Source of the DNA: Shigella phage Moonfish
Sequence record: PQ613263
Direction: 5' to 3' (one strand)
DNA: 64,000 nucleotides
The notes beneath the pieces are model-generated. The model was given only the letters and a program-made list of their open reading frames with translations. It was not told where the DNA came from and ran no database searches. Below, one piece after another: positions 3,399 to 55,711 of this stretch (the first letter of the stretch is position 1; every line of letters begins with the position of its first letter). A program made the position numbers and the translations under genes.

Positions 3399-3419
3399 CG
3401 TATAAGCTACAGTTCAACA

Positions 3420-3456: not shown

Positions 3457-3468
3457 GAACCAAGAGGA

Positions 3469-21728: not shown

Positions 21729-21929
21729 ATTGATAGGTGAGTCCTGCCAGGCTTTAACTGGCTCCTTCTTCGCAATCCTTACATACCCCTACATAATTAT
21801 TGCGTTAAGCTTTTTTGTTTAAGTTTAAGTGAAGGCGTTCTTGCTGACTCATAATTAGGTGAGGCGTTTGACGAATGACTAGTTCGTTACTACCTCGTTG
21901 TTTGCCATAAGTACCTGGCGACTTCAGGT

Positions 21930-28845: not shown

Positions 28846-29107
28846 TGTAAGCCTTTTTTAATATGCGGTTGGCATAGTGCACAATCTTCTCTGAGTCATA
28901 CACCGAAGAGTTTCCGGGTTTACCATTACCCATACGGGCAGCAGCATTTCGCCATAGAGCTTTAAAGGCACAACCTTCATCGAAGGTCATGCCCAGTGCT
29001 TGGATAATATCCTCACACTCTGCTTGATATGGTTTTTGCTCTATCCGTTGAGGGTTCTTAACTGACACTACATAGTAGTTATTAAGACCGCCGGAGAGCT
29101 TAGTCAT
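28823..29107 (-). CDS. hypothetical protein
   Basis: 94-aa ORF. Confidence 0.45.
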   Translation of the reverse strand: MTKLSGGLNNYYVVSVKNPQRIEQKPYQAECEDIIQALGMTFDEGCAFKALWRNAAARMGNGKPGNSSVYDSEKIVHYANRILKKAYNEDNQQS

Positions 29108-29412
29108 TATTCCCCCTTAGGAACCATGTTTGCTTGGAACTCTGGTTCAGACATTAGACCCAGATTGTTAATAGACAGATAAACAATGTCTTTTAAATCA
29201 ACTGAGGTGTCGAAACGCTGGTCCAGACTAATCTTCAAGGAATGGTTGGCACGGGCCAAATCTTTGTAGGTCACATGAGGTTCGTCAGTGAGCAGCATTG
29301 TGTTCATGGTAAGCAGGGAACCATCATCAGCTTTAGGAAGCTGGAAGATTACCTGTGCTGCTACCATCCAATGATATTTTCTGACAACGGTTTCTTTAGT
29401 ACTTTTAGTCAT
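29107..29412 (-). CDS. hypothetical protein
   Basis: 101-aa ORF, start/stop overlaps with neighbours. Confidence 0.45.
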   Translation of the reverse strand: MTKSTKETVVRKYHWMVAAQVIFQLPKADDGSLLTMNTMLLTDEPHVTYKDLARANHSLKISLDQRFDTSVDLKDIVYLSINNLGLMSEPEFQANMVPKGE

Positions 29413-30317
29413 GCGAATGCCTTTTGAATTATTTGATGAACTTCTTCAGGGGTAGCGTGATTTGGAATCTCAATCTCGTTAGCCCACGTTGGGTAGAACA
29501 AGGACAGTTCCCCACCCAAACCAACTTCTGGATGAGCAATATCAGGATGGTCTTGCCAGTTAACGGCTTCAACCAAATGCTTGTTCGTGTACTGCAAGGT
29601 ATCCATGTTGTCACGAATCATGAAGTACTGAGCATCATGAATGTGAATACTAGGACGAATATCTAACCTGAACTCACTGGCTCTAACTTTACGCATAAAC
29701 TCCGAGCCAGCACGGTTATTCAGTAGGCACCAGCTTTGCCCTAAGGCATTACCAGCAGTTCTACCTTCAGCTTCTGCTTCATATGGAGTCTTACATGTCC
29801 CACGTAAAACCTGAGCCAGTAAAGGAGTACGCACTCTCAAACCAAATGCAGCAGTTACATAACCAGTCTTGGCAGCTTCGTCTAGCTTAGCCTGAACCCA
29901 AGCATCACTAACTACATAAAGGTCGTGATAACGTTTCTCTGTGAGCTTTGCTTTCTCTTCCGAGAAGCCACAGTTCTTCATTAAGCCCATATACGTACCA
30001 CCATAGGTAAGCAGGAAGGTTGGAGCCTTCGAGTCACCTCGTAATGATTTGTATTTGTGCTGGATGGAGTTGATGGATTCAACCGTATCTACAATGTCTG
30101 GCATCTGCTCACCGAAGTAAGCATACGCACGAAGACTGTGCCCATCATAACCATCGGTATATACCTTAAGTTTCTGGGGGTCTTTCGTAGTCAATGCAGA
30201 GATACGGTCTTCAAGGCTTGCAAAGTCCAGTCCACAAAATATCCAACCTGGGGGTGCTTCGAAGCATTTCTTAATCTTCTTGGCATATTTGGAACCACTA
30301 GGGATGGTCTGTAGATT
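29409..30317 (-). CDS. DNA polymerase (family A) 3' exon: polymerase palm/fingers part
   Basis: Begins in-frame with NLQTIP..., contains GLDFASLEDRI (motif A, DYSQIELR-like), KAPTFLLTYGGTYMG (motif B) and IHIHDAQY (motif C HD); joins exon 1 to restore RLSASEP-NLQTIP. Confidence 0.8.
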   Translation of the reverse strand, partial: NLQTIPSGSKYAKKIKKCFEAPPGWIFCGLDFASLEDRISALTTKDPQKLKVYTDGYDGHSLRAYAYFGEQMPDIVDTVESINSIQHKYKSLRGDSKAPTFLLTYGGTYMGLMKNCGFSEEKAKLTEKRYHDLYVVSDAWVQAKLDEAAKTGYVTAAFGLRVRTPLLAQVLRGTCKTPYEAEAEGRTAGNALGQSWCLLNNRAGSEFMRKVRASEFRLDIRPSIHIHDAQYFMIRDNMDTLQYTNKHLVEAVNWQDHPDIAHPEVGLGGELSLFYPTWANEIEIPNHATPEEVHQIIQKAFA

Positions 30318-31023
30318 CCTGATGTTCAGCATGGGTCGTTAATCCATGCCCGTCTTTCGACTGCTGCATATTCCTATGCAGAGCAGACTATATCATCACG
30401 CCAGATAGTAAGGCGTGCCATGCGCTTCCACCCACTTGAGTGTACTCTCTTTCGAGATAGTCGTTGCACCTTTCAATGCTGCGTGTAACCGAGCGTGGTC
30501 AGGAACACTTAGCAATACAAGATTATCAAAGTCGTTGTTATACGGATTCTCATCACAATGATGCACACACCAGCCTTTTGGTATTTCACTGATATTAAGT
30601 GCCTCACATACTACCACATGGTGAGCAAAAACGTGTTTACTGCCTTTGCGTGCAGTATACCAATCCGGTTTAAGTACCATTAAGTAACCTTTACTGTCGG
30701 ATACTAAACCTTTGTAGTTATGATGGTCTTTCCCAAATTTACCTAGCATGGGGTTATTTTCCCCCAGCTTGGAGCGTCGGTAAGACTTTGCATTTCTGTT
30801 TTGACGGTATTCTTTACTGTAGTTCTCCATAATATATTTAGAGACTTTTTTGTAATTAATACCTAAACGCTTTGATATTTCTGCTTGAGATAGGTCAGTA
30901 TTCTCGTACAGAGTCTTGATATCCATCATGTGCCTCCTAAGGCAGGTATGGTTGATTTGGCTCAGGATTGCCCGGTCTGGGTTTCCCCTGAATTCACATG
31001 GTTTAAATAGCCCAATTTATTTT
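30318..31023 (-). mobile_element. probable group I intron (706 nt) inside DNA polymerase gene, carrying an HNH homing endonuclease ORF
   Basis: Interrupts a conserved Pol A motif; 5' exon ends in U, intron ends in G; GGGCU 10 nt into the intron can pair with exon-end AGCCU (P1 with U.G); frame is preserved across the junction. Confidence 0.7.
30396..30929 (-). CDS. HNH homing endonuclease (intron-encoded)
   Basis: 177 aa; own RBS TAGGAGG; N-terminal HTH-like segment; C-terminal HNH motif CVHHCDENPYNNDFDNLVLLSVPDHARLH. Confidence 0.8.
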   Translation of the reverse strand: MMDIKTLYENTDLSQAEISKRLGINYKKVSKYIMENYSKEYRQNRNAKSYRRSKLGENNPMLGKFGKDHHNYKGLVSDSKGYLMVLKPDWYTARKGSKHVFAHHVVVCEALNISEIPKGWCVHHCDENPYNNDFDNLVLLSVPDHARLHAALKGATTISKESTLKWVEAHGTPYYLA

Positions 31024-32694
31024 AGGCTCTGAAGCCGATAACCTGCCGGAGACCGTGCCTCCCAAATTGAGATTACCGAACAGATAGTGCCAGCCATCCG
31101 GTCCCGGTTGGGCGTTCCTGAAAGCTGGTATAAAGCTAGTAATAATCTTATCCACGAGCTTATAGTCGATAAGAGCATTGAGCAGTTCCTTAACATCTTC
31201 ACTCTGCGTATGTGTACGCAGTGCTTTAATAGTGTCACCATCAGTAGCTGGTTGCTTGCTCTTAGTAAGACCAAGAACTGGTAAGCCAATAAAATCAAAT
31301 AACAATTTCTGTAACTGTGGACCGGAGTTAGGATTGAACTCGATGTCACAATCAGCCAATGTTACCTGCTTCTTCTTAAGCTTGGTATTCTTATCGTCTA
31401 CCCATTCCTGACGAAGCATCAGGGTGAAATTCTTCATGAGCTTAGACTCACGAATAGTTTTCAGAGCCTGGTTCCTGTCAGTTTCCATTTCCTCAGCTAC
31501 TTGGTTAACGGTTTCCATATTCATTGGCATACCGGTTAACTGCATCTGAATAATGTCTTCACAGGCAGGTTTAAAGATGTTGTTATAAACATCCAGTTGG
31601 TCATCAGCAATGAGAGTATCCCAGTGCTTCTCGTAGGTGTACCACGTACACAGTCCATCGATTAGGTTGTAGCGTAACAATTGCTCATTAGGAATAAGAC
31701 AAATGTCTTTGATATCGTCTTGAGCATAGTTACCGGCATACTCCTGAGCCTGGTCTTTCAGACTAAGGTGATTACCAGCACAACTGTTAGTAGCCAGATA
31801 AGTGATTAACTTAGTGCAGTCCCAGTTACGTAGCATGACGTTCATGCCATACAGTAGACCTTCTGTATCAATCAGGTTATCCATGAATAACTGATAGATA
31901 AGTACATACACGTCATAGCTAATGTTGTGATACATCTGCCGTTGGGTGTACTTAATGAAGAACTCACGTAACAGGTTACGGACAATATCATTTCTGTTGA
32001 TACGCCCATAAGGTGCTTCAGTAGCTCCCTTAATTGGCTCGTAGTCCACATTAAAAGCTATGCCTTGTGTCTTACTCCAACAGAATGTAATCGTTCCTAT
32101 ACCGGCGTTATAGTGCTTTAAACCGAATGATTCGATGTCTATAGCCAATGGCTTATTCATCTCCAGCAACTGGTCTAGCCAGGCTTTAATCTCTTCGGGG
32201 GTATCTGGGTAGGCCTCAAACTCAATGATTCCCTGACCTGGTTCAGCATACTGTCCACGTATGTGGTTAAGTAGTGCATCCATACCCTGAGCAATTTTAG
32301 CTCTCACTACAGGTGGGTCATAAAAGACCTGTCTGTAGTTAGGCGTATAGATAACCTTCTGCTTACCCCATACTGAGTCACAAACGTAGCCGAGGTTGGC
32401 CTCTGCTTTAGCTTCTTTAGTCAGTATTTTAAAGTAATCAGAATCGGTACAGATGACGTACTGAGTTTCTGCATCATCCAGTACTTGTTGCAGTTCCTGC
32501 TGTATGAACTCCTTAATCTCCTTTGCAGGAGTCTTCTTTTTGCCGGGGGCAGAGTGAAGTTCAAGGAAGATAAAATCTTCCATGCTTAGGTCATATGGCA
32601 GCAGGTAGGTTTTAATCATCTCCTCCCTTCGGATTTGATGACCGAGGATAGCAATAGGATATTTACCCGTATCCTGAGAGGTGATGTAACGCAT
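31024..32694 (-). CDS. DNA polymerase (family A) 5' exon: 3'-5' exonuclease and N-terminal polymerase part
   Basis: Contains Exo I LAIDIESF; ends ...TVSGRLSASEP (then KINWAI* if unspliced), i.e. truncated in the middle of the conserved RLSSSDPNLQNIP motif. Confidence 0.8.
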
Positions 32695-32703
32695 GGCTTT
32701 ACC

Positions 32704-33234
32704 TTAGAAAATCAGATGGGAAGCTGCATAGTACTCAATGGAAGGTAGAATCTTCTCATACTGCTTGATTGCTAAATCATCACCAGCAAGAGTCCAAGCT
32801 GCTTCACGAGTACGCTGTAGTCCTTTGTACTGACCAGTCTGGTCTTGAGCTACCAGACATTCAGGTAGAGCATCACGTACATCCTGATAGGACATACAAC
32901 CACGAACCAGACGATATACAGTCTGGTTCACAAGGTGTACTTCCATAATCAGACTACTGGAGGCTTTCAGATACTTGTCCATTGCTGGCCATAGTTCTGG
33001 ATTAAGTGTTAATCGTTCGCCGTAGGTTGGGGGTCTAGAAGCATTAGAACGTTGATAGAACTCCCCCTGATAAAGGAATCCAGCCGATATATCTACACCG
33101 TTGATACGGTCATTCTTATCAATGATACTGTTTAGCACACCATCAAGACGAACCAGTTCTGCTAAGAACAGGTGTTTGACTATCTCACTACTATTGGCAA
33201 CCTGACCAATAGTCGTTGAACCAATCTGAGGCAT
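32704..33234 (-). CDS. hypothetical protein
   Basis: 176-aa ORF between helicase and polymerase genes. Confidence 0.5.
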   Translation of the reverse strand: MPQIGSTTIGQVANSSEIVKHLFLAELVRLDGVLNSIIDKNDRINGVDISAGFLYQGEFYQRSNASRPPTYGERLTLNPELWPAMDKYLKASSSLIMEVHLVNQTVYRLVRGCMSYQDVRDALPECLVAQDQTGQYKGLQRTREAAWTLAGDDLAIKQYEKILPSIEYYAASHLIF

Positions 33235-35425: not shown

Positions 35426-37459
35426 TTACTTAACGGCTTTGACCAGTTTGGTAGCTAACTTAGCTTCTTCTTCAGTCAGTCCCATTGCAGTGAATGACTT
35501 CTTAGCATGGCGCTTATAGTCTTGCAGAGCATGGCCTTTCTGATAGTCAGGATATGACTCATCATTCAGGATACTACGCAGGTTATCAGCGTGTTTGCTA
35601 TTGGCAGGTGCTTTAGCCACTGGAGCTTTAGCAACCTTAATCGGTTTGCCAACAGGCTTACAGGAGCAGGTTGCACGTACATCAGCAATCTTAGCAACAA
35701 CATCATTGCCAACATCGAATGCAGCCCAAGGCTTACGAGCTTTTCCACGTAACTCTACCAGCAGGTCAGCAGCAGCTAACTTATCTTCCGGGGTAGTTGC
35801 ATTAAGGAACTCTTTAACCAGTTCCTGGATTTGTTCTTTCACAGTCGGAGCCTTCTTAATAACAGGTTTAAGGTCAGTAGCCTTCACTGGTTCAGAAGCT
35901 ACAGCTTCATTCAGTGACTCTTCCATATTCAGTGCTTCTTTATTAGCAACAGTACGGAATTGTTCTACGGAACCAGATGATAGATTGGTGTATTTGAGGT
36001 TAGTACCATAATGACCACCAACCATAACAAGTGTGGTAGGTGAGCTGTGGTTCCCAACGATAGCATCGTTAAGCAATTTCTTGCCTACTTCTGTTTTAGA
36101 CAGGTAGATACCTTTATTAACGTTACTACGTTCCTCTTCTGGCAGTTCAGCAATAATGTGATACGCAGCTACACGCATCTTATTGGTGTTGTATTCAGGA
36201 ACAGCAAATACATCTTCCGGTGCTACTTTACCGAGGATAGTTACATCACCGCCGAAGGTGCGGATATAGCTCATGGATGCTACATGCAGACCATTGGAGC
36301 AGTCCTGACGGCGGTCAGGGTCTACCAGGTCTTCACGTATCTGTACTTTACATCCTACCCATTGACGGATGTTGCCTGAGTGACAGTCAACGAATACACG
36401 TTTACCGTCTTCTGTACCTTTATACTTAAGGCGTTTCAGGAACAGGATTGAACCATCATCAGCAATAGGTAGTTCAGCAGTTTCCATGAACTTCATCAGG
36501 TCTTCCACTGAATGCAGACGGTCTTTAATAACTGGAGCCAGACGTTCAAGGAACTTAGTAAATCCCTTGTAGTCTTTCAACTTGGCAGACTGACGCAGGT
36601 GACGTTGTAGGTTCTCAACTCCAGGGATAACCCCATCGTTGGTAACAGCAACAACCACTTCATCTTCCTTCACATCAGTGTGGAAGTTGGCGTCATCGGT
36701 ACAAATAGCCCCCAATGCAGTTAGCTTCTCAGAAGCAGCAGCCAGTTTATCCTGGTTCGTAACTTTATCCTCTTCTACGTAAGGTAGAGGGGTTTCCTCA
36801 CGATTGGTAAATACAATTTGTACGCCTTTGATGTTCCGGGCTTGTTTAGCAAACTCACCCATTTCATCATCAGATACCCCACGAATTGCAATAGGCCATT
36901 CCTGTGCAAGAATGTTGTTGGTGTGGTAATAACCCCAACCCAACACATCGTTAATAAAACGAACCAGTGCAGTATGGTTATGGTCTTTATCCCAGCCGGT
37001 AACCCACATCAGATTGTCGCGTTTGTCACGCCAACCCTCTGATACAGTTACTACTGGTTCATTAGCCTGTACAGCCAGGAAGGTATCCATAGCTTTTGAC
37101 ACCAACGTCTTGGTAGGACTGCCCAGCTTAATATCTGAAATGATACGAGTAGGTGGAACACCTGTACCATCTTCGAAGAACTCTTTGAGTTTAGCTTTTG
37201 CTACCTTGAAGAAACGGACGAATCCGTTAGTATTCTTCTCTGCTTCCAGATACTCGATACGTAGGCTTACTTCTGGTGCAATGTTTACTTCTATTTGGTC
37301 CAGGATAGTACCCAGACCTTTGGTTTGTGCTTCGGATACAATGCGAGCAACCCGAGGGTCGCTCTGGGGATATACAACCGTGGAGCCATCAGGCTTCCAC
37401 AATGTGAGGTTACGACTGTCAACTGCCAGTGCGATGATAGAAATCAGCTCGATTTTCAT
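35426..37459 (-). CDS. rIIB-like protein (by position next to rIIA-like gene)
   Basis: 677-aa ORF immediately downstream of the rIIA-like gene; call rests on synteny only. Confidence 0.4.
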   Translation of the reverse strand: MKIELISIIALAVDSRNLTLWKPDGSTVVYPQSDPRVARIVSEAQTKGLGTILDQIEVNIAPEVSLRIEYLEAEKNTNGFVRFFKVAKAKLKEFFEDGTGVPPTRIISDIKLGSPTKTLVSKAMDTFLAVQANEPVVTVSEGWRDKRDNLMWVTGWDKDHNHTALVRFINDVLGWGYYHTNNILAQEWPIAIRGVSDDEMGEFAKQARNIKGVQIVFTNREETPLPYVEEDKVTNQDKLAAASEKLTALGAICTDDANFHTDVKEDEVVVAVTNDGVIPGVENLQRHLRQSAKLKDYKGFTKFLERLAPVIKDRLHSVEDLMKFMETAELPIADDGSILFLKRLKYKGTEDGKRVFVDCHSGNIRQWVGCKVQIREDLVDPDRRQDCSNGLHVASMSYIRTFGGDVTILGKVAPEDVFAVPEYNTNKMRVAAYHIIAELPEEERSNVNKGIYLSKTEVGKKLLNDAIVGNHSSPTTLVMVGGHYGTNLKYTNLSSGSVEQFRTVANKEALNMEESLNEAVASEPVKATDLKPVIKKAPTVKEQIQELVKEFLNATTPEDKLAAADLLVELRGKARKPWAAFDVGNDVVAKIADVRATCSCKPVGKPIKVAKAPVAKAPANSKHADNLRSILNDESYPDYQKGHALQDYKRHAKKSFTAMGLTEEEAKLATKLVKAVK

Positions 37460-37463
37460 CAGA

Positions 37464-40127
37464 TTAATTACCTTTCAGTTTATTTAGACGATTACGGTAG
37501 AGGGACTTAAACCCAGGAATATCATCTGGATGTTTCTTGAGATACCTGACTAAGCTAGTCAAGTCCAGGTTTTGCAGGATGTCATCCTTATTCCAGCTAT
37601 AACAAAATAAAGCTTTGTACTTGCTGAGTATTTCGTAATGTTTATGATTACGTGGGTTAGTCATTGTCATGTATGGCACTAAGTCTTCCTCTGACTTAAT
37701 GTAACCCATTTCAATGAGCTTCCTCTCTTTACTCCGATGATTTCTTAGGAAATCATACGCCCATTCATACTCTGGATTAAAAATCAGATTTTGTAGTGGT
37801 TTGAATGTTAGACCAAGAATACCGAGGATTTCCCAATACTCTCTGTCATCCAATCCTATGTACTCAGTAATACCAATACGCTGTTCAGTGACATACTTCT
37901 TGAATCCCTTACTGGAAATAACAGACATCAATTCACTGAGTCGAATATCGTCAATGTGAATAGCACCACGTCGTTTAGCCTTGTTAACTTCGATTTGATT
38001 GCGACAGACAACAGTTTCTGCTTTCATCTCATCGGACAACTCATACCATTTCCACATGGTTCCAATCCGGGCATTATCTGGTCTACCAGAACTAACCTGA
38101 TTGGCTAGTACGTAGTACTTAGGCTGTTCCACTTCAACGAAACCAGATTTCTCATGGTAGATTGGGTCAGCAAACTCCTTCTGGATATACGGTTTATATA
38201 TCCGATCTCCATTTTCATCTCGTACAAGAGTAGTACCTAGTACTGCATTCAATGAAATTAGAGCATTGGTTTTACCCCCTGCTTTGGTTTTATTGTCAGC
38301 TAGTGTCTTAGCTCGATTCTCGGCAGCTATCCTAGCTTGCTCCTTACGGAAGTTAGTTGGTTTGTCCCACTCATTGTATTGAGTAAGGTCAATTACCCGA
38401 TAACCCATAGCAGTGAATTTAGCTACAGCCTCCTCTGCTGCACCCTTCTTAGAACTAACGTTGTCCCACTCATTGTATTGAGTAAGGTCAATTACCCGAT
38501 AACCCATAGCAGTGAATTTAGCTACAGCCTCCTCTGCTGCACCCTTCTTAGAACTAACGACGTGAACAAAAGCTGTACGCTCCAGGTCACCTCGGTTGTA
38601 CTCAGGGAAGTATGAGAAAGAGTCTGCACAATCAGATAAACGGCGAGTAACTACAACGTTCTTGGTAGTGAATATACCAATACCTAGATGGGAGTGATAA
38701 TCCACCTTAAAGTAATCAGTAAGTTTACCTTTCACCAGTTTGGTACAGCTACCCTGGTTCATTATGTAACCTGACCACTTAATACCAGTAGCTTTTAAAG
38801 CAGCAATCTGAGGTAAGTGCAGATGGCGATATACGAATCCCTGGAATGGATAGCGTGTACCATTTGCACGAGTATGCTTAAGAGCACTTATAGCCTTACT
38901 ATACAGTTTTTTAAGACCTGCATATTCAGGACGAGCTAGTAATGCTTTATTGGATAAATTACGCCAGTGTTTGATGTGGTGCTTGCGTTGCTTAGCCCAT
39001 AAACTAGAGGACATATAGCGTTGAACAATAGGGTCTGTAACAGCAAGTAGGAAAGGTGGATACCTCCAGAAGCAGGAAGAAGCTTTAGAAGCATATTCTT
39101 CAATCTGCTTAATAGCTTCAGGAATCTTAGCCTTAATCTCTTTCTCCATACGGTCTACTAAATCTACACATAGAGCAGTAATACCATCGTCGGTTAACTT
39201 CTGGTTAGACAGGGTTTCTCGACTAGGAGCAATAGCTAAGGTATCCGGTGCAGCCTGAACTACTAAATTAGAAGCACCAATGATGTTCATAAAGTTGAGA
39301 ATAAGACCTACAGCTTCTTCACTAGCTGGGCTGGATACTATTGGGTACATTACATTACCGTAACGAATAAAGATGTTACTGCTACCCATATAGTTTTGAT
39401 ACCAGCTATCAGACATATCATATGAACCAGGTTTAAATGACATACCTAACGTAGGTAATAAAGTGTAGTCACCTTGTAGAATACTATTACCCGTTTCTTC
39501 ACGAGTGAGTTTGGGGGTACTAAGCTCAGCCTTAATTTCACCGTTAAACACAATAGATTTGATGTAGTGAATAAAGGTACTTACGTCGTGTTTACCTAGC
39601 TGGAATTTAACTTCCAGACCGGATTCCTCAGTAGGAATACCAGTAACGATAGGAACAATACCTGGTTTACCATCATTCTCTATTGCAGCTTTAGCTACGT
39701 TATATACCGACATCTTTCCTTGGTTCCACGAAGTAACCTGGAAGCTATCTGTATAAGCGAATGGGGACTTACATCCCAGACCAAATCCACCAGTAACACT
39801 ACTGTTGGACTTCTTGGTAGATGCACCATAGACACCATAAATGGAACCAATGAGTTCATCTGGGATACCGTTACCAAAGTCACGGAAGGTAATAAAGTTG
39901 TCTGTATCAATAGTAATACGGATAGGAGTATCAGTCTTACCTGCTTCAATATGAGCATCCCAACTGTTACAGATAGTCTCACGGACTACTGCCAGAGTAG
40001 GATTGTTATATAGGGAAGTACTTAATACGTGAAAGAATGCCGGGTCATCAGAGATGCCAAAGGCGATTGCTTCTTTACCACCCAGTGTCGCTGAAGTGGC
40101 TGATTGATTAGTATCTGCAACTAACAT
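37464..40127 (-). CDS. rIIA: rIIA-like protein with N-terminal GHKL (histidine-kinase-like) ATPase fold
   Basis: 887 aa; N-box ETICNSWDA, G1 box FRDFGNGIPDE, G2 box GGFGLG; contains an in-frame 33-aa tandem duplication. Confidence 0.7.
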   Translation of the reverse strand: MLVADTNQSATSATLGGKEAIAFGISDDPAFFHVLSTSLYNNPTLAVVRETICNSWDAHIEAGKTDTPIRITIDTDNFITFRDFGNGIPDELIGSIYGVYGASTKKSNSSVTGGFGLGCKSPFAYTDSFQVTSWNQGKMSVYNVAKAAIENDGKPGIVPIVTGIPTEESGLEVKFQLGKHDVSTFIHYIKSIVFNGEIKAELSTPKLTREETGNSILQGDYTLLPTLGMSFKPGSYDMSDSWYQNYMGSSNIFIRYGNVMYPIVSSPASEEAVGLILNFMNIIGASNLVVQAAPDTLAIAPSRETLSNQKLTDDGITALCVDLVDRMEKEIKAKIPEAIKQIEEYASKASSCFWRYPPFLLAVTDPIVQRYMSSSLWAKQRKHHIKHWRNLSNKALLARPEYAGLKKLYSKAISALKHTRANGTRYPFQGFVYRHLHLPQIAALKATGIKWSGYIMNQGSCTKLVKGKLTDYFKVDYHSHLGIGIFTTKNVVVTRRLSDCADSFSYFPEYNRGDLERTAFVHVVSSKKGAAEEAVAKFTAMGYRVIDLTQYNEWDNVSSKKGAAEEAVAKFTAMGYRVIDLTQYNEWDKPTNFRKEQARIAAENRAKTLADNKTKAGGKTNALISLNAVLGTTLVRDENGDRIYKPYIQKEFADPIYHEKSGFVEVEQPKYYVLANQVSSGRPDNARIGTMWKWYELSDEMKAETVVCRNQIEVNKAKRRGAIHIDDIRLSELMSVISSKGFKKYVTEQRIGITEYIGLDDREYWEILGILGLTFKPLQNLIFNPEYEWAYDFLRNHRSKERKLIEMGYIKSEEDLVPYMTMTNPRNHKHYEILSKYKALFCYSWNKDDILQNLDLTSLVRYLKKHPDDIPGFKSLYRNRLNKLKGN
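38362..38559. repeat. perfect 2 x 99-bp tandem duplication inside the rIIA-like gene
   Basis: 38362-38460 and 38461-38559 are identical base for base; encodes duplicated NVSSKKGAAEEAVAKFTAMGYRVIDLTQYNEWD. Confidence 0.9.
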
Positions 40128-40154
40128 TTATTTACTCTCCAGTTTAAATGTTGC

Positions 40155-40346
40155 TTAAAGTAGTACTTGTTTACACTTATCAAAAATAGCTTTACGTAGT
40201 TCAGCTTCTTCCAGCGGTTCATCATTGGGGTGATGACCCAATGGACTGTTTTGAAAAGCATTCATTAGGAATAAGACTTGATATTCTGTTAAGCCATTGA
40301 TCTGAATGCTATACGTTTTCTCTGAGGCGATATTTACATTAACCAT
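40155..40346 (-). CDS. hypothetical small protein
   Basis: 63-aa ORF. Confidence 0.35.
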   Translation of the reverse strand: MVNVNIASEKTYSIQINGLTEYQVLFLMNAFQNSPLGHHPNDEPLEEAELRKAIFDKCKQVLL

Positions 40347-40671
40347 TACGTTTACTTGCCATTGCTTGTAGGACGAATACAGCTATATCACTTGCAGTGT
40401 CATCAGTAAGTTCCTCCACTGAATAGTGACTTTCACCATCAAGTTCACCATTTTGCCATTCATCCAGCATACGCTGCACTTCAGCTAATCCAGCCTGTAT
40501 CATTTTCTTGCTTGGTTCCAGCCATAATTTACGTTCCTCTGCCAGTGCAGCAATGCACATACACAGTGAAGCGATGTTAGCCGGACAAGCAGCAATATCA
40601 CCAGTGAGAGCTATCTCACTTAAAGGTTTAGCTTCCCCAGTTTGGGCCAGTATAACTTCAGGATTAATCAC
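40339..40671 (-). CDS. hypothetical protein
   Basis: 110-aa ORF. Confidence 0.45.
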   Translation of the reverse strand: MINPEVILAQTGEAKPLSEIALTGDIAACPANIASLCMCIAALAEERKLWLEPSKKMIQAGLAEVQRMLDEWQNGELDGESHYSVEELTDDTASDIAVFVLQAMASKRNG

Positions 40672-40909
40672 GGATTTGCTCCAGGTTATGAGTAGGAATA
40701 GGGAAGAACGGATAGTCCCCAGTAGGGTCTAAGGTTACGGACACATGATGAATACCAGTAATCTGGGACATGCTGAGAGCAGTGTCGAAATCATCCTGTG
40801 TACAGGCATAAACAACATCACCTTTATTGACTTGTGGATCCATTACAGGTGTGTCTTTGATACGGTATTTAGCAGGCATATGCCCCCCTAAAAGGGTTAA
40901 TAGAATCAA
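40664..40909 (-). CDS. hypothetical protein
   Basis: 81-aa ORF. Confidence 0.45.
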   Translation of the reverse strand: MILLTLLGGHMPAKYRIKDTPVMDPQVNKGDVVYACTQDDFDTALSMSQITGIHHVSVTLDPTGDYPFFPIPTHNLEQIRD

Positions 40910-40913
40910 AAAA

Positions 40914-40933
40914 AGACCTCCCGGAGGAGGTCT
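40914..40933 (-). terminator. intrinsic terminator (minus strand)
   Basis: AGACCTCC-cgga-GGAGGTCT 8-bp hairpin with T7 run on the minus strand. Confidence 0.55.
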
Positions 40934-40938
40934 TAGGT

Positions 40939-41175
40939 TTACTTACTATTTCTCCCAAAGAAGCGTATTACACGTTCCTTTGCTTCATCCTGCTCCTTAA
41001 TGGCTACATAATCTCGTGCATAGTAATACACACACCATAAGCCAAGAACACATGCAGAAAAACGGGCTACTACGAAGAACATCTCTTCCAGGCTCTGTGC
41101 ACCATGTAGTGCAAATACAAATTCCAGAACCAGGATGATACTTATAATCATTGCTTGGATAGCTAAACGTTTCAT
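40939..41175 (-). CDS. small membrane protein
   Basis: 78 aa with two hydrophobic helices. Confidence 0.5.
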   Translation of the reverse strand: MKRLAIQAMIISIILVLEFVFALHGAQSLEEMFFVVARFSACVLGLWCVYYYARDYVAIKEQDEAKERVIRFFGRNSK

Positions 41176-42116
41176 TCTGTAATTGTTTCTCCTGGGATTA
41201 ACTTACGGAATTGGATGAAATCTAGCAGGTTGCCTGAATACAGATTACCTTCACGGTCCATAGAGGTAACACCCTGTTCCCAGGTTAATGGGTTCTGGTT
41301 GTTAATGAACTTATCACCGAATAGCATAGGAGTTGCTTGGTGTTCAGTAGGGGATGCATGAATAGGTTGGTCTTCGACTAACTTAGCAAACAATCCCAAG
41401 TCCTCTTCAATAGTAGAAGGGCGGCCTTCGAAATTGTTGTAAGAAGCACGAGCACAACGAGCAGCACTTACTTTAAGAAGTAAGCCATACACTTCTTCAC
41501 GACTTGGCTCATCACGAGTAATTCGTTGATGTTTGCAGTAATTATAAGCCCCGACACGATCAATATGAGCAATATACGGTAAATGCCATTCCCCTTGTGG
41601 GAGTGCTCTTGGAGTGCTTTCATTATGAGCCTTACGCATTGCTTGAGCCAGTTCACGAATCTCCGGTTGGGCATCTTCATGGTCACGCAGTCCATAGAAG
41701 TTAGTCCAGCTAGTTGAAGTTACCACTACACGAATATGTGTGAATGGTTCCAGAATACGGTTAACAATCTGCTTATGTACTTGCCCACGACGCAGCATTT
41801 CTGCATAGGTAGCAGCACTGGACGCAGCCTGGTTCCAGATAAAGATTGCATCACTACGTTGGTCTTCGGACAATTCTTCAAATGCCTGCATCCCTTTCTG
41901 GTTCTTACCCCAGTGACTTGGCATCACTGGTTCATTACGAACCTGTTCGATGAACTTAGAAGTAGGGATAGCACGACTACTTGAAGCGTTGCGGTTAAAC
42001 ACACGGTGGGTCATAAACTCACTGTGAATGAATCGGGGATAGACCAATTCAAAGGTAGTAATACGAGTACCCGTTGCATGATGAACGGAATCTGCAATGA
42101 CAGTTGCCTTAATCAT
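41172..42116 (-). CDS. thyX: flavin-dependent thymidylate synthase ThyX
   Basis: 314 aa; ThyX signature THRVFNRNASSSRAIP (RHR...S....S.R). Confidence 0.75.
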   Translation of the reverse strand: MIKATVIADSVHHATGTRITTFELVYPRFIHSEFMTHRVFNRNASSSRAIPTSKFIEQVRNEPVMPSHWGKNQKGMQAFEELSEDQRSDAIFIWNQAASSAATYAEMLRRGQVHKQIVNRILEPFTHIRVVVTSTSWTNFYGLRDHEDAQPEIRELAQAMRKAHNESTPRALPQGEWHLPYIAHIDRVGAYNYCKHQRITRDEPSREEVYGLLLKVSAARCARASYNNFEGRPSTIEEDLGLFAKLVEDQPIHASPTEHQATPMLFGDKFINNQNPLTWEQGVTSMDREGNLYSGNLLDFIQFRKLIPGETITE

Positions 42117-42559
42117 TAGAATGACCTTAGATAGTTGGTAATACCACTACGGTTTTCTGTAATCTTCTTGGCCTGAACATATACCAGCTTAAACTCACTA
42201 CGGGGTAGTTCCTGTAATACTGCTATACCTTCAGTAAGAGCCACAGAACACGCTACAGCGGTTTCTTTTTTAAAGGAGTACAAGTCTTCATACAAGAGGG
42301 CTTCATACTCTTTACGGAGCATACAGAGAGCATCTCTTGCCTTATCACTTACTTCTTTTGAACCAGCAGACATAGCTAAACTGTATATGATAAAGACTTG
42401 TTCAAAAACAAAGTCCAGTAATCTATCAGGGTTGTTAGTACCCATGAATAATTTTGTTGTGTAGGAACGGGCTTTACGGTTGAGTACATACTCATCCTCT
42501 ATACCTTTCTTATAAAGAACGGGGCTTCGTTCCCTTTTCCGTAGGAATGGAATACGCAT
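42116..42559 (-). CDS. hypothetical protein
   Basis: 147-aa ORF. Confidence 0.5.
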   Translation of the reverse strand: MRIPFLRKRERSPVLYKKGIEDEYVLNRKARSYTTKLFMGTNNPDRLLDFVFEQVFIIYSLAMSAGSKEVSDKARDALCMLRKEYEALLYEDLYSFKKETAVACSVALTEGIAVLQELPRSEFKLVYVQAKKITENRSGITNYLRSF

Positions 42560-42586
42560 TAGTAAATCTTTCTTAGTAAATAAAAA

Positions 42587-42607
42587 AGCCCACGGGTTAG
42601 GTGGGCT
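42587..42607 (-). terminator. intrinsic terminator (minus strand)
   Basis: AGCCCAC...GTGGGCT hairpin with T-run on the minus strand. Confidence 0.5.
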
Positions 42608-42687
42608 TGGGTTAGGAGAAGGATAAGCAATGATCTGGAAGTAACTTCCACAAATAGCCCTACTAGAGGGCTATACAGGTAAGTTGC

Positions 42688-42894
42688 TTATTCAGCTTCT
42701 GCTTCAGGCTTAGCTCCAGACAGTGCTTTAGCTACATTACGACGAACAGAGTCGTAACCTACTTCAGTTCGTAGAAGAGAGCCGTCAACAAAAGCAATAT
42801 CTGCTTTTCCGTCATCGCTGCATTGTACTGTTACTACGTTTGCTGCAACTACTGTAAACTTACGACCATTTGCTTTGGTAGTGAATACTGACAT
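42688..42894 (-). CDS. hypothetical small protein
   Basis: 68-aa ORF. Confidence 0.45.
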   Translation of the reverse strand: MSVFTTKANGRKFTVVAANVVTVQCSDDGKADIAFVDGSLLRTEVGYDSVRRNVAKALSGAKPEAEAE

Positions 42895-42903
42895 GTTGTT
42901 TCC

Positions 42904-43410
42904 TTATTTACTGCTTCTCGCAGCTACTGGTTTGTTTTCCTGGTTATTGTACTTGCCTGTGTATGTGGCAGGTTCTTGAACCAGATGAAATAATACTTGA
43001 GCTATCCCGGAACCAGCCGGGATATGTAATTTCTTACGTCCGTGATAGACCAGTTCAAGGGTAAGATACCCTTTCCATCCTGGTTCAATCACGGTATTGA
43101 ACACTGATAATGCACGTCTTGCCCATGTAGACTTATCGTGAACGATTGCTACACAGGATGGGGACATGTTGAACTTCTCAATGGCTGAAGCCAATGCGAA
43201 CTTACCGAGATGGTGTGATACCTGTTTTCCATCAATGATTTTCACCATTGGAATCAACCCAAATAAGCGATAGAAGGTAATATCTTGTTTGATACGAATA
43301 TCATAACCAGCTTCACCCAACCCATAGCTTACACCATGCTCGGATACCTTACGGTCTGGGACATCCAGTAATTGAGAGGAACGATATAGGGAATTACCGT
43401 TAACAACCAT
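42904..43410 (-). CDS. dCTP deaminase / dUTPase-superfamily enzyme
   Basis: 168 aa; IEPGWKGYLTLELVYHG...IPAGSGIAQVLF matches the Dcd/dUTPase beta-jellyroll signature. Confidence 0.6.
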   Translation of the reverse strand: MVVNGNSLYRSSQLLDVPDRKVSEHGVSYGLGEAGYDIRIKQDITFYRLFGLIPMVKIIDGKQVSHHLGKFALASAIEKFNMSPSCVAIVHDKSTWARRALSVFNTVIEPGWKGYLTLELVYHGRKKLHIPAGSGIAQVLFHLVQEPATYTGKYNNQENKPVAARSSK

Positions 43411-44585
43411 TATTTCATTCCTTTAGGGATATGAACTACCTCCCCAAAAGGTACGGTAGCACTAGGATTATTCAGAACACACCATATGATAGGGATATCA
43501 AATGGTAATTCCTCCATTGGATGAACATACATATCGGAGAATATGATTGCAGCGGTTGGCTTATTCTTAATAATCCAATCCCGTACTGGCACAAGACTTG
43601 TACCACCACGGCCCGTAATCTTAATCTCTTCAAAAGTATCTTCTTCAGTGATGTCTATTTCTTCTTGGATAATATCGTCGAAGGTAATTAAGGACATCTT
43701 CTTAGGATTGAACTGGCTCTTAACGTAGGCAACCTCAGAGTTAAAACGCAGAGAGTCAGCACTACTAATAGAACCAGATACATCCTCAAAGTAAGCTAAG
43801 TGTCGTAAGCGTCCTTCATCATCTTCCAGGGATGGTAGATAGATGTCAGTGAAACGACGGTTAGGTCTGGCCCACGTATAACGTGAGTCATCAATGTCAG
43901 TGAAGAAATCCATCAAGACTTCCTGCCATGGAACTACTGGCTTAAGGAATTGGGTAATAACCTCTTCCATATGACCAGCACCCTTACCAGGCATTGTTCC
44001 ACCAGCCATCTTCTGGCTTTGCATCGCACGTACTACGTTGTTGACAACAGCACCCTGGGACTGCCCCGGAGTGGGAGCTTTCATGTCGCCAGCAAGACCT
44101 GCTCCAGCACCCCCTGACGGCTGCTGCCTTTTCTGAGGGTTCTTCATCAGGTCATCGTAGATGTCTTCTTCAACCCATCCTTTGTATTGAGGGTCTTTGC
44201 AAATACCTTCGTCGATACCAGTGAACTTGTAACCATCTTCCTCTAACTGAAGATTAATGAAGTGGTCACATGCCTGGTTCCAGACTTCTGGGTCACGGCT
44301 TCCACATCGGATGCCATGCAGATATGCCACATGCCAGAGTTCGTGCATTAATACGGTTTCTCTGGCATCTGGACACATCCAGACAAAGAAATCGGGATTG
44401 AAATGGAGTTCTATCCCATCAGTACATGCAGTGGGACAATCCTCACGTCTCCATGAGAATTTAAGGCTACACAGCAATGAACCAAAAAACGCTGCGCTGC
44501 GTCCAAGAAATGCGTTGGCTTGTATTCTATCGTACTCCCTCATTAACTGTTCATCAGTGAGGGTATGTGAAGGTATGTTATTCAT
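43410..44585 (-). CDS. VWA-domain protein with N-terminal HExxH metallopeptidase-like domain (MoxR partner)
   Basis: 391 aa; HELWH zinc-binding-like motif; MIDAS-like D-x-S-G-S (EDVSGSIS). Confidence 0.55.
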   Translation of the reverse strand: MNNIPSHTLTDEQLMREYDRIQANAFLGRSAAFFGSLLCSLKFSWRREDCPTACTDGIELHFNPDFFVWMCPDARETVLMHELWHVAYLHGIRCGSRDPEVWNQACDHFINLQLEEDGYKFTGIDEGICKDPQYKGWVEEDIYDDLMKNPQKRQQPSGGAGAGLAGDMKAPTPGQSQGAVVNNVVRAMQSQKMAGGTMPGKGAGHMEEVITQFLKPVVPWQEVLMDFFTDIDDSRYTWARPNRRFTDIYLPSLEDDEGRLRHLAYFEDVSGSISSADSLRFNSEVAYVKSQFNPKKMSLITFDDIIQEEIDITEEDTFEEIKITGRGGTSLVPVRDWIIKNKPTAAIIFSDMYVHPMEELPFDIPIIWCVLNNPSATVPFGEVVHIPKGMK

Positions 44586-44679
44586 TAAGATGCTCCATGA
44601 TTAGGGTGATAGCCATACAGTTTTTCAGCTGCTTTTCTAGCGTCTATGGCATCCTGCTTTTCAGCAAAAGTGCCTAAAC

Positions 44680-45033
44680 TTACCAGATGGAATCTCGTTT
44701 ATGCCAGTACACCCCAGTTACTCCACTGGAATTAGTTACACGTTTCTTTTGGTTTCTACTGTTAGTTTTGCTGTCCACCAACCTAAAGTTACTTAATAGA
44801 TTGTTAACCCTATTATGGTCTATGTGGTCAACCTGCATTCCCTTTGGTATAGGTCCATTGTGCATTTCCCATATGACACGATGCACTTTGTAGCTTTTGC
44901 ACTTATAGTTAAAACACAGATACCCATCACCATTTAAAGAGCCAACCCTGCCCCCAGCAATGGCCCTTGAGGACAATGTAACTTTCCAGAATAGCTCACC
45001 ATTTTCATAAACGAGTATGTCATTCCAGTTCAT
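44680..45033 (-). CDS. free-standing HNH endonuclease (HNH_3-like) with truncated AP2-like tail
   Basis: 117 aa; GYLCF...HRVIWEMHNGPIPKGMQVDHIDHNRVNNLLSNFRLV; C-terminal GVTGVYWHKR AP2-like start then stop. Confidence 0.7.
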   Translation of the reverse strand: MNWNDILVYENGELFWKVTLSSRAIAGGRVGSLNGDGYLCFNYKCKSYKVHRVIWEMHNGPIPKGMQVDHIDHNRVNNLLSNFRLVDSKTNSRNQKKRVTNSSGVTGVYWHKRDSIW

Positions 45034-45036
45034 AGA

Positions 45037-46089
45037 TTATCCGTGAATGTAACGAGAGATATTGGCAGCAGCCTTACGCCATTCAGGGGTAGCCTGAATT
45101 TCTGGTAATGCTCTACCTACTGTACGGAAGTACAGAATCTTATGAGTGAACGTTTTAAAGCGTTCAATGTACTGAAGAACATCAGCGAAGTTTTCTTCAG
45201 TAGTTTTGTTAGCCAGATGGTTAACGGTAGCCCAACACAGGTTGTTATCTTCCGGTAGTGCACAGCCCATAGGGTCTTTGACTACTTTCTCAATCGTAAT
45301 CATACGATTGTATACCTGAGTGAACTGAACAAATTCTGTAGCCTTACCAGCAGTAACGTGGCCTGCATAATAGATAGAATCTTCATCAGGCAGAGCACCT
45401 TCTGGTCGGTTCTTGAGGTCTTTATTAACAAAGTCCCAGGTACGAGGGCAACAGAATGTTTTGTTCTTGTGGGCAGGATCGAAGTCATGCAGATAACCAG
45501 GGTTAGCATGTAAGAATGCAACCAGACGCTCGTCCCATTCCTGTGGAATCATTACGTCTTCAACAAAGATGTCGAAGTTAAGTTCCATTTCGAAGTGGAC
45601 AACTCGAGACTGCATTGCAGTACCTAGTGGGTTAACAATGGCACGGTCAGTAGCTTTGTTACCAGCACAGACAATCATCACATTAGGGTGAAGTTTTTTC
45701 TGACCAGTCATGCGGTCAAGAATTAGTTTGTATGCAGCAGCTACTACTTCTTTCTTAGCTGAGTTGAACTCATCAAGGAACAGGAGCCATCCATTGTAAC
45801 CTTCAGGGATTTCATCCCCTTCAATTGGGAACAAGTCAGCGAATGGAATAAACTCTGCACGGTCACCATTACGGAATGGTAGACCTGATAGGTCTTCTGG
45901 GGCAGAAGTAGACAGACGATGGTCAATCAGCTTCATACCAAATTCATCTGCAACAGAACGAATAATTGCAGATTTACCCATGCCTGGTGATGAAGTCAGG
46001 AACGGTACGTTACCTGCTTGTAAGGCACGGATAATAAAGTTACGGGCTTGACGTGTGTTACATACAGTCAAGGAGTCAATGCTTGCCAT
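45037..46089 (-). CDS. MoxR-like AAA+ ATPase
   Basis: 350 aa; Walker A SPGMGKS, Walker B LLFLDEFN. Confidence 0.7.
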   Translation of the reverse strand: MASIDSLTVCNTRQARNFIIRALQAGNVPFLTSSPGMGKSAIIRSVADEFGMKLIDHRLSTSAPEDLSGLPFRNGDRAEFIPFADLFPIEGDEIPEGYNGWLLFLDEFNSAKKEVVAAAYKLILDRMTGQKKLHPNVMIVCAGNKATDRAIVNPLGTAMQSRVVHFEMELNFDIFVEDVMIPQEWDERLVAFLHANPGYLHDFDPAHKNKTFCCPRTWDFVNKDLKNRPEGALPDEDSIYYAGHVTAGKATEFVQFTQVYNRMITIEKVVKDPMGCALPEDNNLCWATVNHLANKTTEENFADVLQYIERFKTFTHKILYFRTVGRALPEIQATPEWRKAAANISRYIHG

Positions 46090-46123
46090 TTACTTACTCT
46101 CCTAAAGGTAATGGAATTACTAA

Positions 46124-46453
46124 TTAAGATTTAACACAAGGGTATGCTTTATTAACGGCGTAGCTCATGATTGCGAATGAGGACTGCATCGATAATACTT
46201 CAGGGTCATACACAATTACTCGCGCTACACGATCGGTGATGCTTCCGTACTTCATTCCTTCCGGGATACAGTTTTCAGTACTATCCCCATACAATTGAAC
46301 CATGCCAGAGAAGTAACCTTGTAGGAAATGCCTACCAGCGTCATTGTGGTAAGCTTGTGCAGCCTTAATAAGGTTATCTGCTGAGCCAGATGCCTTAGCA
46401 GAAAAGGACAGAGCTGACAAAGCTACTACAGCAACAGCAATTAAAGTTTTCAT
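46124..46453 (-). CDS. secreted/periplasmic protein with signal peptide
   Basis: 109 aa; N-terminal MKTLIAVAVVALSALSFSAKASG. Confidence 0.5.
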   Translation of the reverse strand: MKTLIAVAVVALSALSFSAKASGSADNLIKAAQAYHNDAGRHFLQGYFSGMVQLYGDSTENCIPEGMKYGSITDRVARVIVYDPEVLSMQSSFAIMSYAVNKAYPCVKS

Positions 46454-46639
46454 TTAGTTACCTTTTAACTCGTTGAGTTGAAGTACTCCGGTAGGGGTTA
46501 ATGACCACCCAAGACCAGCATTGAACTGTACTAAGCCCAGTTTCTTAAGAGACTGTGCGGTTTTGTTATTACGGTTGCTGGTGGCAGAACCACCTTGAAC
46601 CATGCGAAGGAATATTACTTGGGACTGGGTAAGTTTCAT
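46454..46639 (-). CDS. hypothetical small protein
   Basis: 61-aa ORF with start/stop overlap to neighbours. Confidence 0.4.
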   Translation of the reverse strand: MKLTQSQVIFLRMVQGGSATSNRNNKTAQSLKKLGLVQFNAGLGWSLTPTGVLQLNELKGN

Positions 46640-47828: not shown

Positions 47829-47861
47829 TTAACTTAATGCATAATCCGTTTCAAGAATGTC
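47829..47861 (-). CDS. RNAP II large subunit, 3' mini-exon encoding the C-terminal foot (D)ILETDYALS
   Basis: Closely resembles the T7 RNAP C-terminus RDILESDFAFA; exact 3' junction inferred. Confidence 0.55.
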   Translation of the reverse strand, partial: DILETDYALS

Positions 47862-48988
47862 CTGCCAGAGGCTGTCATCCAGCTTACCCGCAGAGAACTC
47901 TTGTCCCAGTACCTGAGATAGGATGAAGCCCAGCAAGTCACTCTTAGCAATGTCAGATAGAATCTGATTGTACTGACGACGTAGGTCATTACCATAGTTA
48001 GGATGACAACGAAAACCATTAGTTAAACGAGTCGTTAGCTCGCCCTTACCTTCCATGATTAACATGAAAGCCATATGTAGCATCTGCTTGTTTACGAGCA
48101 AGCATTGCCTCCTCAAGTGTGTCGTACGTACCCAGACCGATCTGTTTGCGATTGACTGTGATGTGTGCCTGAAATCTACCAGAAGGCAGTATTCTCACAC
48201 CGTTCACTTTGCTTGAAGTATTACTAGATAAACTCATATTCATCTGGTTCTGTCTGCTGGTTACATTTCTCAAATTAGACCAACGATTGTCGTTTCTAGT
48301 ATGATTGATGTGGTCCACCTGGTTAGGTGTTTCCCCAGTTTCCATTATCCAGATTATTCGATGTAGTAAGTACTCTTTGCGGCCCAGGCTAACGGATAGA
48401 TACCCTTCTTTGTGAGGATACCCCACAATTGTTCCGGCTAACCCACTGGCAGAGTCATAACGATGAGTCACTAGCCCACTATCCCTGTCATACCTTAAAA
48501 CCTTCTGCAAAGATTCTTGGGTAATATTACCCAAGTTTATTATTAGGTTTTTACAGGTAGAGCATAGATGACCTATTGGACTCTTTCTAGCATCATAGAA
48601 GTTACAAACAAACTCATTAGAGCATTGCTTGCAACTACAGATAGCTGTGTACTTACCAGTTTTACGTAATATTTGAGAGTTATCTAACATATGGATTCCT
48701 TAGTAATTTTGCATACAATTTCAGATTGTATCCTAACCAAGGAAGTAAGTCTCCAATTTTCACTGGAGTATCGGACTATATCATCACCCACTAATCAGTG
48801 GGGCAAGGCGCTTGGGTGGTCACTTGACTCACCTACTCTACTCACATACGAAATGCTTTCGATAGTCTCTGAACCTTCCCTCATAGAGGGCTTGGCTGCT
48901 GATTGGCATATCCATAGGACTTAGCTTTCCAGCAATTCACCTTGTTTTCGACACGGATTACTCCGTGAAGGATCATTTATGTTTAATC
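47862..48988 (-). mobile_element. probable group I intron (~1.1 kb) in RNAP II large-subunit gene, carrying an HNH-AP2 endonuclease ORF
   Basis: Upstream ORF stops right after ...VLTVHD, 9-10 codons short of a T7-like C-terminus that is encoded 1.1 kb downstream in frame-compatible position; splice after caU with intron ending caG satisfies U/G group I rules. Confidence 0.55.
48046..48690 (-). CDS. HNH endonuclease with AP2 DNA-binding domain (intron-encoded)
   Basis: 214 aa; own AAGGAA RBS; HNH_3-like GYLSVSL...HRIIWIMETGETPNQVDHINHTRNDNRWSNLR; C-terminal AP2-like GVRILPSGRFQAHI...GTYDTLEEA. Confidence 0.8.
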   Translation of the reverse strand: MLDNSQILRKTGKYTAICSCKQCSNEFVCNFYDARKSPIGHLCSTCKNLIINLGNITQESLQKVLRYDRDSGLVTHRYDSASGLAGTIVGYPHKEGYLSVSLGRKEYLLHRIIWIMETGETPNQVDHINHTRNDNRWSNLRNVTSRQNQMNMSLSSNTSSKVNGVRILPSGRFQAHITVNRKQIGLGTYDTLEEAMLARKQADATYGFHVNHGR

Positions 48989-50014
48989 ATGTACAGTCAA
49001 TACAGGGAATGGCTTCTTAGGTAAAGTGTCCAGCATGTCTGCTACTACCTGACGGTCAACCATAGCAATAGTGCCTGGGTCGAGATAGTCGATAATAGAC
49101 ATAGATAAGAATCCAGACTTCTCGTAGTGTTCCCACAAGGTCTGTACCATTTCCATGTTACCTTCAATCTCCCCATACTCTGCTGGGCCTGTGTCGCAGA
49201 GTTCACGAACAGCAGCAACCAGGTTAGCATCGAAGTTACAACGACGCAGCATCTCGCGTACCACCATCCCATCAATAGAGTGGGTGATGTTAGCAGAGAG
49301 CATACGAGTCTTCTCTTCAGTACCCTGAACCATGCGGGTAATGTCGAATGGTTTACCTAAGAAGTTAACAGTCTGTACTTCTGGAACCATGACCTTAATG
49401 ACGGCATGGAAGTTGTCAGACAATACCCATACGTAACGGTTAGCATCCGGGTTACCACATTGCAGTAAGAACTTGTTCAATGCCCAAGGCCCACTAGCAA
49501 CAGTTTCCATTACATTCTCAAAAGTCTTGAGACGGATACCCTCACCGAATACTTCTTTAGGCTTAGCTTCTGAACCGTAGAATGCAGTCATAACTGCCTG
49601 CTTAGTGTCACTACGCTTAATACGAGATGCTTCACCAAGGATGTCCAACATCTTGTGATAGATAACTGTATAAGCATCACGACGTAATGGCTTACCGTTT
49701 TCACCCATGTAGTTAACTACGTTACACAGTTCAGCAGCAGAACGGTCACCAGTCAGGCAAGCCAGTAACTGCAAGCCTGATGATGTAGCATCCAGAGCTA
49801 CGGCATAGCCAATAGGCTTACCGGCTTTCATATCTTTCCATGCGTTTACACCTGCATAGAACAATGCGGATTCTTCAGCTTCATCTACCAGATTAAGCAG
49901 GTTAGCTTCGTTTTCATCGAACCAGCTAATACGTTCATCCCATGTTTTCTTATCCAGACCCATGTTATTCGCAATATCAATCTTTAAATATTCTTTCGCT
50001 GTGAAAAGCTGCAT
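48989..50014 (-). CDS. phage RNAP II large subunit (N4 gp16-like, T7-like catalytic half), 5' exon
   Basis: LDATSSGLQLLA (T7 motif A FDGSCSGIQHFSA), KQAVMTAFYGS (motif B), ITHSIDG (T7 H784 region), RELCDTG (motif C). Confidence 0.8.
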
Positions 50015-55232: not shown

Positions 55233-55553
55233 CTATTTAGTCAGGATGTCGATTACTTTTGAATATTCTGCGTTATAGATACGAGCGTTCTCTGAATCTT
55301 TGCAGAATTCTTCGATACTTTTCTTACGCATAGTCTCGTTCATAGCTGTTTCTTCAGCTAATTTGTTTACGAATGTATGCATTTCTAATTTAGTACGGAT
55401 GGCTTGTTTCTCTGCCATAGTAGATACATATGAATTAAGCATACCTACTGCTTTAGTAGCTGTGCCGAATGTATCTGCAACAGTAGTAGCAGCTGAGTTA
55501 ACAGTACCCAGTAAAGTTCCTGCGGTCATACGTACAGTAGCGGTAGTAGTCAT
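55233..55553 (-). CDS. hypothetical early protein
   Basis: 106-aa ORF downstream of the hairpin at 55596-55610. Confidence 0.5.
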   Translation of the reverse strand: MTTTATVRMTAGTLLGTVNSAATTVADTFGTATKAVGMLNSYVSTMAEKQAIRTKLEMHTFVNKLAEETAMNETMRKKSIEEFCKDSENARIYNAEYSKVIDILTK

Positions 55554-55595
55554 GATGATAGCTCCAATAGTTGATGATAGGACGACATGTCCATA

Positions 55596-55610
55596 ACATG
55601 CGGAGCATGT
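55596..55610 (-). promoter_or_regulatory. GGA-triloop hairpin, candidate vRNAP-type early promoter
   Basis: ACATGC-GGA-GCATGT (6-bp stem, 3-nt loop, same C-GGA-G core) ~45 nt upstream of the 55553 start. Confidence 0.45.
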
Positions 55611-55711
55611 GTAACGTGTAAGGTGGGGTAGGGTAGTGGCTACAGGGTCAACATACCGGGGGGGATGGTTGAGTGTAAGGGTGTAGCCCCAGCCACACCA
55701 CTAAAGCTGAA

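Follow-up and report, generated by a model that had tools for sequence, protein, structure and literature searches.

The second copy of a perfect 99-bp tandem repeat found within the rIIA gene of this phage is very probably not biological but the untrimmed k = 99 end overlap of a circular contig, and the true rIIA product is almost certainly a protein of 854 aa, as encoded in an independent assembly of the same phage (SRR32252115), instead of the 887 aa that can be read from the sequence as written. The repeat itself, its exact length, its occurrence as a single copy in the relatives and in this independent assembly, as well as the circularised state of the sequence, are direct observations. 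Throughout the text, the window refers to the whole 64-kb stretch of DNA that was analysed, in which the rII genes and the two repeat units are located as follows:

37464-40127, minus strand: rIIA gene, an ORF of 887 aa as written and of 854 aa minus the extra copy.
35426-37459, minus strand: rIIB gene, PHROG 2886 (E 3.4e-210), 4 bp downstream of rIIA on the same strand.
38461-38559, minus strand: 99-bp unit read first in the protein, residues 524-556, 100% identical to 38362-38460.
38362-38460, minus strand: 99-bp unit read second in the protein, residues 557-589.

By direct reading of the sequence, two base-identical 99-bp units stand in tandem at 38362-38460 and 38461-38559. Tandem Repeats Finder delimited the same interval (38362-38559), with a period of 99, 2.0 copies, 100% matches, 0 indels and a score of 396, and a separate repeat search, which also gave 100% identity between the two units, reported them as the sole long direct repeat in the window. 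These three approaches agree on the perfect 99-bp tandem duplication that an earlier note on this DNA had placed at 38362-38559, and a perfect match of this length cannot have originated by chance. Considering the arrangement as X-U|U-Y, where U is the unit and X and Y its flanks, the unit length is exactly 99 bp, since extension and microhomology amount to 0 bp on both sides (suffix(X,U) = 0 and prefix(U,Y) = 0). A junction devoid of microhomology is weak evidence per se, as about 56% of random junctions show none and many real events show none either. Microhomology-mediated slippage was considered as a candidate mechanism and rejected, the microhomology at the boundaries being 0 bp.

At the protein level, residues 524-556 (VSSKKGAAEEAVAKFTAMGYRVIDLTQYNEWDN) recur as residues 557-589 (ending in EWDK) within one single ORF of 887 aa, which confirms the earlier claim of 33 extra residues with the reading frame kept. 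Besides these residues, the segment 38461-38559 covers the last base of codon 523 and the first two bases of codon 556. The unit boundary falls between codon positions 2 and 3, and as a consequence the sole new residue is N556, which replaces a K.

Regarding the gene itself, its description as rIIA-like in the earlier note is well founded. The protein matches the profile PHROG 2979 'RIIA lysis inhibitor' (E 1.6e-297) as well as four more rIIA PHROGs, it exhibits an N-terminal GHKL-type ATPase domain (Pfam HATPase_c_3 at residues 47-155, with 37.1 bits for a cut-off of 25), and the gene adjoins rIIB in an rIIA-rIIB order that is syntenic with phi G17 and G7C, to the annotated rIIA of which it is 84-86% identical. 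The gene lies on the minus strand, a point missing from the earlier note.

From sequence comparison, the phage can be assigned to the genus Gamaleyavirus, i.e. the G7C-like/N4-like coliphages of the Schitoviridae. A megablast search of the rIIA gene against 50,697 phage records gave 56 matching records, nearly all of them Escherichia phages of this genus, with phi G17 as the best match at about 90% identity, and at least 80% of the gene is covered in 55 of the 56. The window as a whole is collinear with positions 5457-67609 of phi G17, on the same strand, and identity to it does not exceed about 90-94% even for the nearest phage in the database. In the 39 listed records other than CU10EC, rIIA spans 2562-2568 bp, compared with 2664 bp in the window, that is one unit more. 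Among about 5.8 billion protein clusters searched, the 49 closest rIIA representatives measure 852-855 aa, and all of them (49/49) hold the segment once when aligned. The comparison with rIIA lengths in related phages, which the earlier note had proposed as a check, therefore designates the relatives as single-copy. The segment corresponding to the unit is strongly conserved (KFTAMGYRVIDLTQYNEWDKPTNF), W554 and D555 being invariant in 65 homologues down to about 31% identity. Divergence between the two copies is zero, and no independent isolate or assembly with the duplication was found in the collections searched. The exact 887-aa protein had no match in a collection of about 15 billion protein sequences. 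By exact-pattern scan, a 50-bp junction sequence had no match in IMG/VR and the whole 99-bp unit had none in IMG/VR, JGI metagenome contigs and GTDB genomes; a third source of the strain is thus missing from these collections.

Away from the rII region, several other features of the window were recorded. A group I intron is recognised at 48751-48994 (Rfam RF00028, 91 bits, E 5e-22), within the minus-strand region 47829-50014, and is directly preceded by a 343-aa ORF (48983-50014, minus strand, ending in LTVHD). This ORF is a putative first exon of a gene for an RNA polymerase II large subunit resembling N4 gp16, the break falling at a candidate T7-like motif C, a reading that draws in part on a phi G17 neighbour annotated 'RNA polymerase'. 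An HNH-type endonuclease-like ORF of 214 aa is present at 48046-48690 and a probable second exon within 47829-48116; at this locus phi G17 has an uninterrupted 405-aa gene, devoid of the intron/endonuclease region. The family A DNA polymerase (29409-32694, minus strand; Logan locus L009) is encoded by two ORFs of 563 aa and 307 aa, both assigned to PF00476, between which lies a gene for a 176-aa HNH_3 endonuclease. The annotation of phi G17 shows the polymerase divided in this way too, and one relative in the same protein cluster is represented by a single 859-aa member, possibly an unsplit polymerase. A 117-aa HNH_3 endonuclease gene lies beside an AAA ATPase gene at about 44590-45030 (minus strand; Logan locus L010, 1487-1840), and since phi G17 has only a 7-bp junction at this site, it can be considered as a small strain-variable mobile-endonuclease insertion. 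The window also encodes a single tRNA gene at 21651-21729 (minus strand), identified by ARAGORN as tRNA-Ile with the anticodon AAT and scoring 63.8 bits with the Rfam tRNA model.

The top protein match of the rIIA product is an 854-aa protein (P0001) that is identical to it at 854/854 aligned residues, with a single 33-residue gap. This protein is encoded on the Logan contig SRR32252115_14 (5770 bp), which corresponds to window 37270-43138 with 0 mismatches but carries the 99-bp unit once. Two further contigs, namely SRR32252115_0 (3943 bp; window 29010-32952) and SRR32252115_68 (2344 bp; window 44176-46519), are 100% identical to the window, which amounts to 0 mismatches over 12,057 bp in all for the three contigs. 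Given that 6-10% of positions differ in the nearest relative, perfect identity over 12,057 bp indicates that SRR32252115 contains this very phage. In a 31-mer graph built from the window, only four branching nodes occur between 37270 and 43138, all of them at the unit boundaries, so that a true duplication would stop a k = 31 unitig there. Instead, SRR32252115_14 runs X-U-Y unbroken, and none of the 31-mers across the junction (38460|38461) is present (0/30). From the way unitigs and contigs are built, we infer that junction reads are absent or rare in SRR32252115, which could nonetheless represent a sibling stock without the duplication, even if the stock sequenced for the window truly carried it. 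In the protein look-ups, no exact record was found for rIIB and for the 880-aa and 391-aa proteins of the window, probably owing to the short Logan contigs of SRR32252115, and 8 of 10 further window proteins were absent as well.

The handling of the genome as a circle becomes apparent away from rIIA, in the following region:

55242-55849, minus strand: N4-like terminal-repeat region, as a single collapsed copy, located by mapping of the G7C ends.

The G7C record bears the annotation 'contains terminal repeat' at 1-1160 and 71758-72917, and its left end (6-456) and right end (71733-72213) are both placed at window 55242-55720, the adjacent bases reaching up to 55849. Since both ends map to one internal place, the physical termini were collapsed and the genome handled as a circle. 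The physical genome ends are therefore located within the window, near 55.2-55.8 kb, and one copy of the repeat was collapsed by the assembly. The order of the window is that of phi G17, an arbitrary permutation, and differs from the physical order of the genome. As for the phi G17 record itself (MH358458.1), a perfect 127-bp overlap is present between its ends (1-127 and 68144-68270). This is what an untrimmed circular contig from SPAdes at k = 127 usually looks like, here in a GenBank/RefSeq 'complete genome'.

The value of 99 belongs to the default k lists of both SPAdes (21, 33, 55, 77, 99, 127) and MEGAHIT (...79, 99, 119, 141), and with either program a circular path comes out as a linear contig that carries the same k bases at both ends. 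In the scenario considered here, a de Bruijn graph assembler working at k = 99 would have written the circular, or circularly collapsed, genome as a linear contig in which the last k bases repeat the first k bases. This contig would then have been closed and reopened at another position with the overlap left untrimmed, perhaps for synteny with phi G17 or by software wrapping a 'circular' contig, and the ends would meet as X-U|U-Y, in which exactly k bases stand twice in perfect tandem. As 99 = 3 x 33, the rIIA frame would be kept by arithmetic and not by selection. The assembler and the k used, the location of the original contig ends at the repeat site and the reopening step are what we infer here from the sequence at hand. 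Trimming of such repeats, after which the genome is reverse-complemented and reopened for synteny with a related one, is a described workflow (PMC8104045), the overlap of SPAdes contig ends has been reported (PMC5481147), and the Phage Annotation Guide mentions circularisation artefacts but not k-mer overlaps (PMC8785237).

AlphaFold2 models of both the 887-aa and the single-copy rIIA were generated from a 65-sequence alignment. In the single-copy model, the unit comprises a loop, a helix (530-540), a strand (544-547) and a loop with W554-D555, and is embedded in an alpha/beta element with a pLDDT of 88-94 over 511-560. In the 887-aa model, the second-read copy occupies the site of the native segment (pLDDT 86-93, blocks 561-590), and the first-read copy is modelled without its strand, with a pLDDT of 39-49 over 541-560 and below 50 at 527-531 and 544-558; elsewhere the fold does not change, the mean pLDDT being 82.5 vs. 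83.3 for the single-copy model. As modelled, the unit is not a self-contained domain, and an arbitrary cut point fits better than the duplication of a functional module. The duplication of an entire domain, cleanly delimited in the structure, was also considered and rejected, as the unit cuts a beta-alpha-beta element and one copy forms a low-confidence loop. As regards the overall fold, the best PDB matches of the rIIA model by Foldseek are members of the Hsp90 family, namely HtpG, Hsc82, GRP94 and TRAP1, with E values of about 1e-11 (6.6e-12 for Hsp90/HtpG), and the alignments of the single-copy model with this family extend over about 600-880 columns with TM values of 0.2-0.4. This likeness to Hsp90/HtpG is in line with the GHKL domain and, at the level of the models, may be read as reaching past the ATPase domain into an Hsp90-like middle region.

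The earlier note had left the choice between a very recent duplication and an assembly artefact. Of these, the artefact is the part that stands, being favoured by the single copy in the relatives and in the 100%-identical independent assembly on the contig of SRR32252115, and the recent duplication is now unlikely. Such a real in-frame tandem duplication would have occurred very recently by replication slippage or illegitimate recombination and become fixed in the sequenced stock, SRR32252115 then representing the unduplicated parent or a sibling, and would provide rIIA with a second loop-helix-strand element of 33 aa. The preserved frame and the intact ORF are what a viable mutation would need, zero divergence fits a very recent event, and the rest of the protein folds equally well in AlphaFold2, so that the phage could survive the insertion; a tandem repeat is likewise found within rIIA in one other Gamaleyavirus record, that of CU10EC. 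T4 genetics offers classical examples of tandemly duplicated rII regions, the T4 cases being large, selected and multi-gene. Against a real duplication, the repeat is missing from the one further assembly available for this phage, in spite of 100% identity to the window over 12 kb, as well as from 49/49 close homologues and about 55 phage records. Its length equals a standard assembler k, its junction has 0 bp of microhomology, which is weak evidence, and it doubles a highly conserved core element with an invariant W-D, one copy of which is predicted to be disordered. Altogether, we give this explanation a low probability.

Less probable still, the duplication could be a minority variant of a mixed population, taken up by the assembler of the window and losing its junction in the Logan clean-up. 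Graph clean-up can indeed remove low-coverage connections, and the shortness of the SRR32252115 Logan contigs (2.3-5.8 kb) could mean a heterogeneous or very deep sample. However, the three Logan contigs otherwise match the window with 0 mismatches in 12,057 bp, an assembler would normally take the majority path, and both the exact k-like length and the missing microhomology are left unexplained. The end-to-end joining of two contigs sharing a k-base overlap and left unmerged, e.g. by reference-guided ordering, would leave the same signature, i.e. a perfect duplication of exactly k bases without microhomology, and neighbouring SPAdes contigs do overlap at their ends (PMC5481147). Yet a single such duplication is found in 64 kb, and there is no local repeat or branch that would break a k = 99 graph at this place, nor any other branching even at k = 31, whereas a circular contig needs no such local reason; this last explanation is thus considered as exceedingly improbable. 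The untrimmed overlap of a circular contig is the reading retained, in keeping with copies that are base-identical, a genome that is circularised and a junction that is missing from the independent assembly.

While the biological weight of the repeat is small, the value of the case lies in quality control, as an 887-aa rIIA unmatched in any other phage would spread into protein databases. As a simple screen, any perfect internal tandem repeat of a common k length (55, 77, 99, 127 or 141) in a circle-assembled and re-oriented genome should be presumed to be an untrimmed end overlap as long as reads do not show the contrary. Were the duplication real after all, which is doubtful, it would date from the last few generations of the stock and would introduce a second helix-strand element with W-D in the alpha/beta domain of rIIA, which comes after the Hsp90-like N-terminal and middle part. 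It could then be tolerated or even selected, rIIA being implicated in escaping host exclusion systems, and the phage would offer a natural insertion within a conserved core element of rIIA, of modest use for structure-function studies, the mechanism of this protein being still little understood.

Compared with natural tandem duplications such as the classical ones of the T4 rII region, the repeat of the window is likewise head-to-tail and located in an rII gene of a lytic coliphage, where it is in frame, but the T4 duplications are large, multi-gene and selected vs. a 33-codon intragenic repeat without microhomology here. In vB_EcoP_CU10EC (PQ435408.1), a 155-bp x2 tandem repeat (99%, 3161-3470) is present inside the orthologous rIIA, but elsewhere in the gene, at the equivalent of about window 39223-39377, and it is not perfect. 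As 155 bp is not a multiple of 3, the CU10EC rIIA is annotated as two CDS, one of which is labelled 'TOP6B'. Just upstream, 221-bp x2 and 155-bp x3 repeats are found (4931-5374 and 5218-5683), and this association with further upstream repeats means that the cause is probably different; the CU10EC repeats possibly correspond to assembly errors in PQ435408.1 or to a real repeat-prone region. The terminal overlap of k-mer length left by de Bruijn graph assemblers (PMC5923482, PMC8104045, PMC5481147) has in common with the repeat of the window a perfect direct repeat, a standard-k length, a lack of microhomology and a circle-assembled genome, the difference being that an additional untrimmed closing and reopening, or wrapping, step is needed here. 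The 127-bp overlap of phi G17 is an artefact of the same type, found at the ends of the record, i.e. in the usual terminal position, whereas the repeat of the window is internal.
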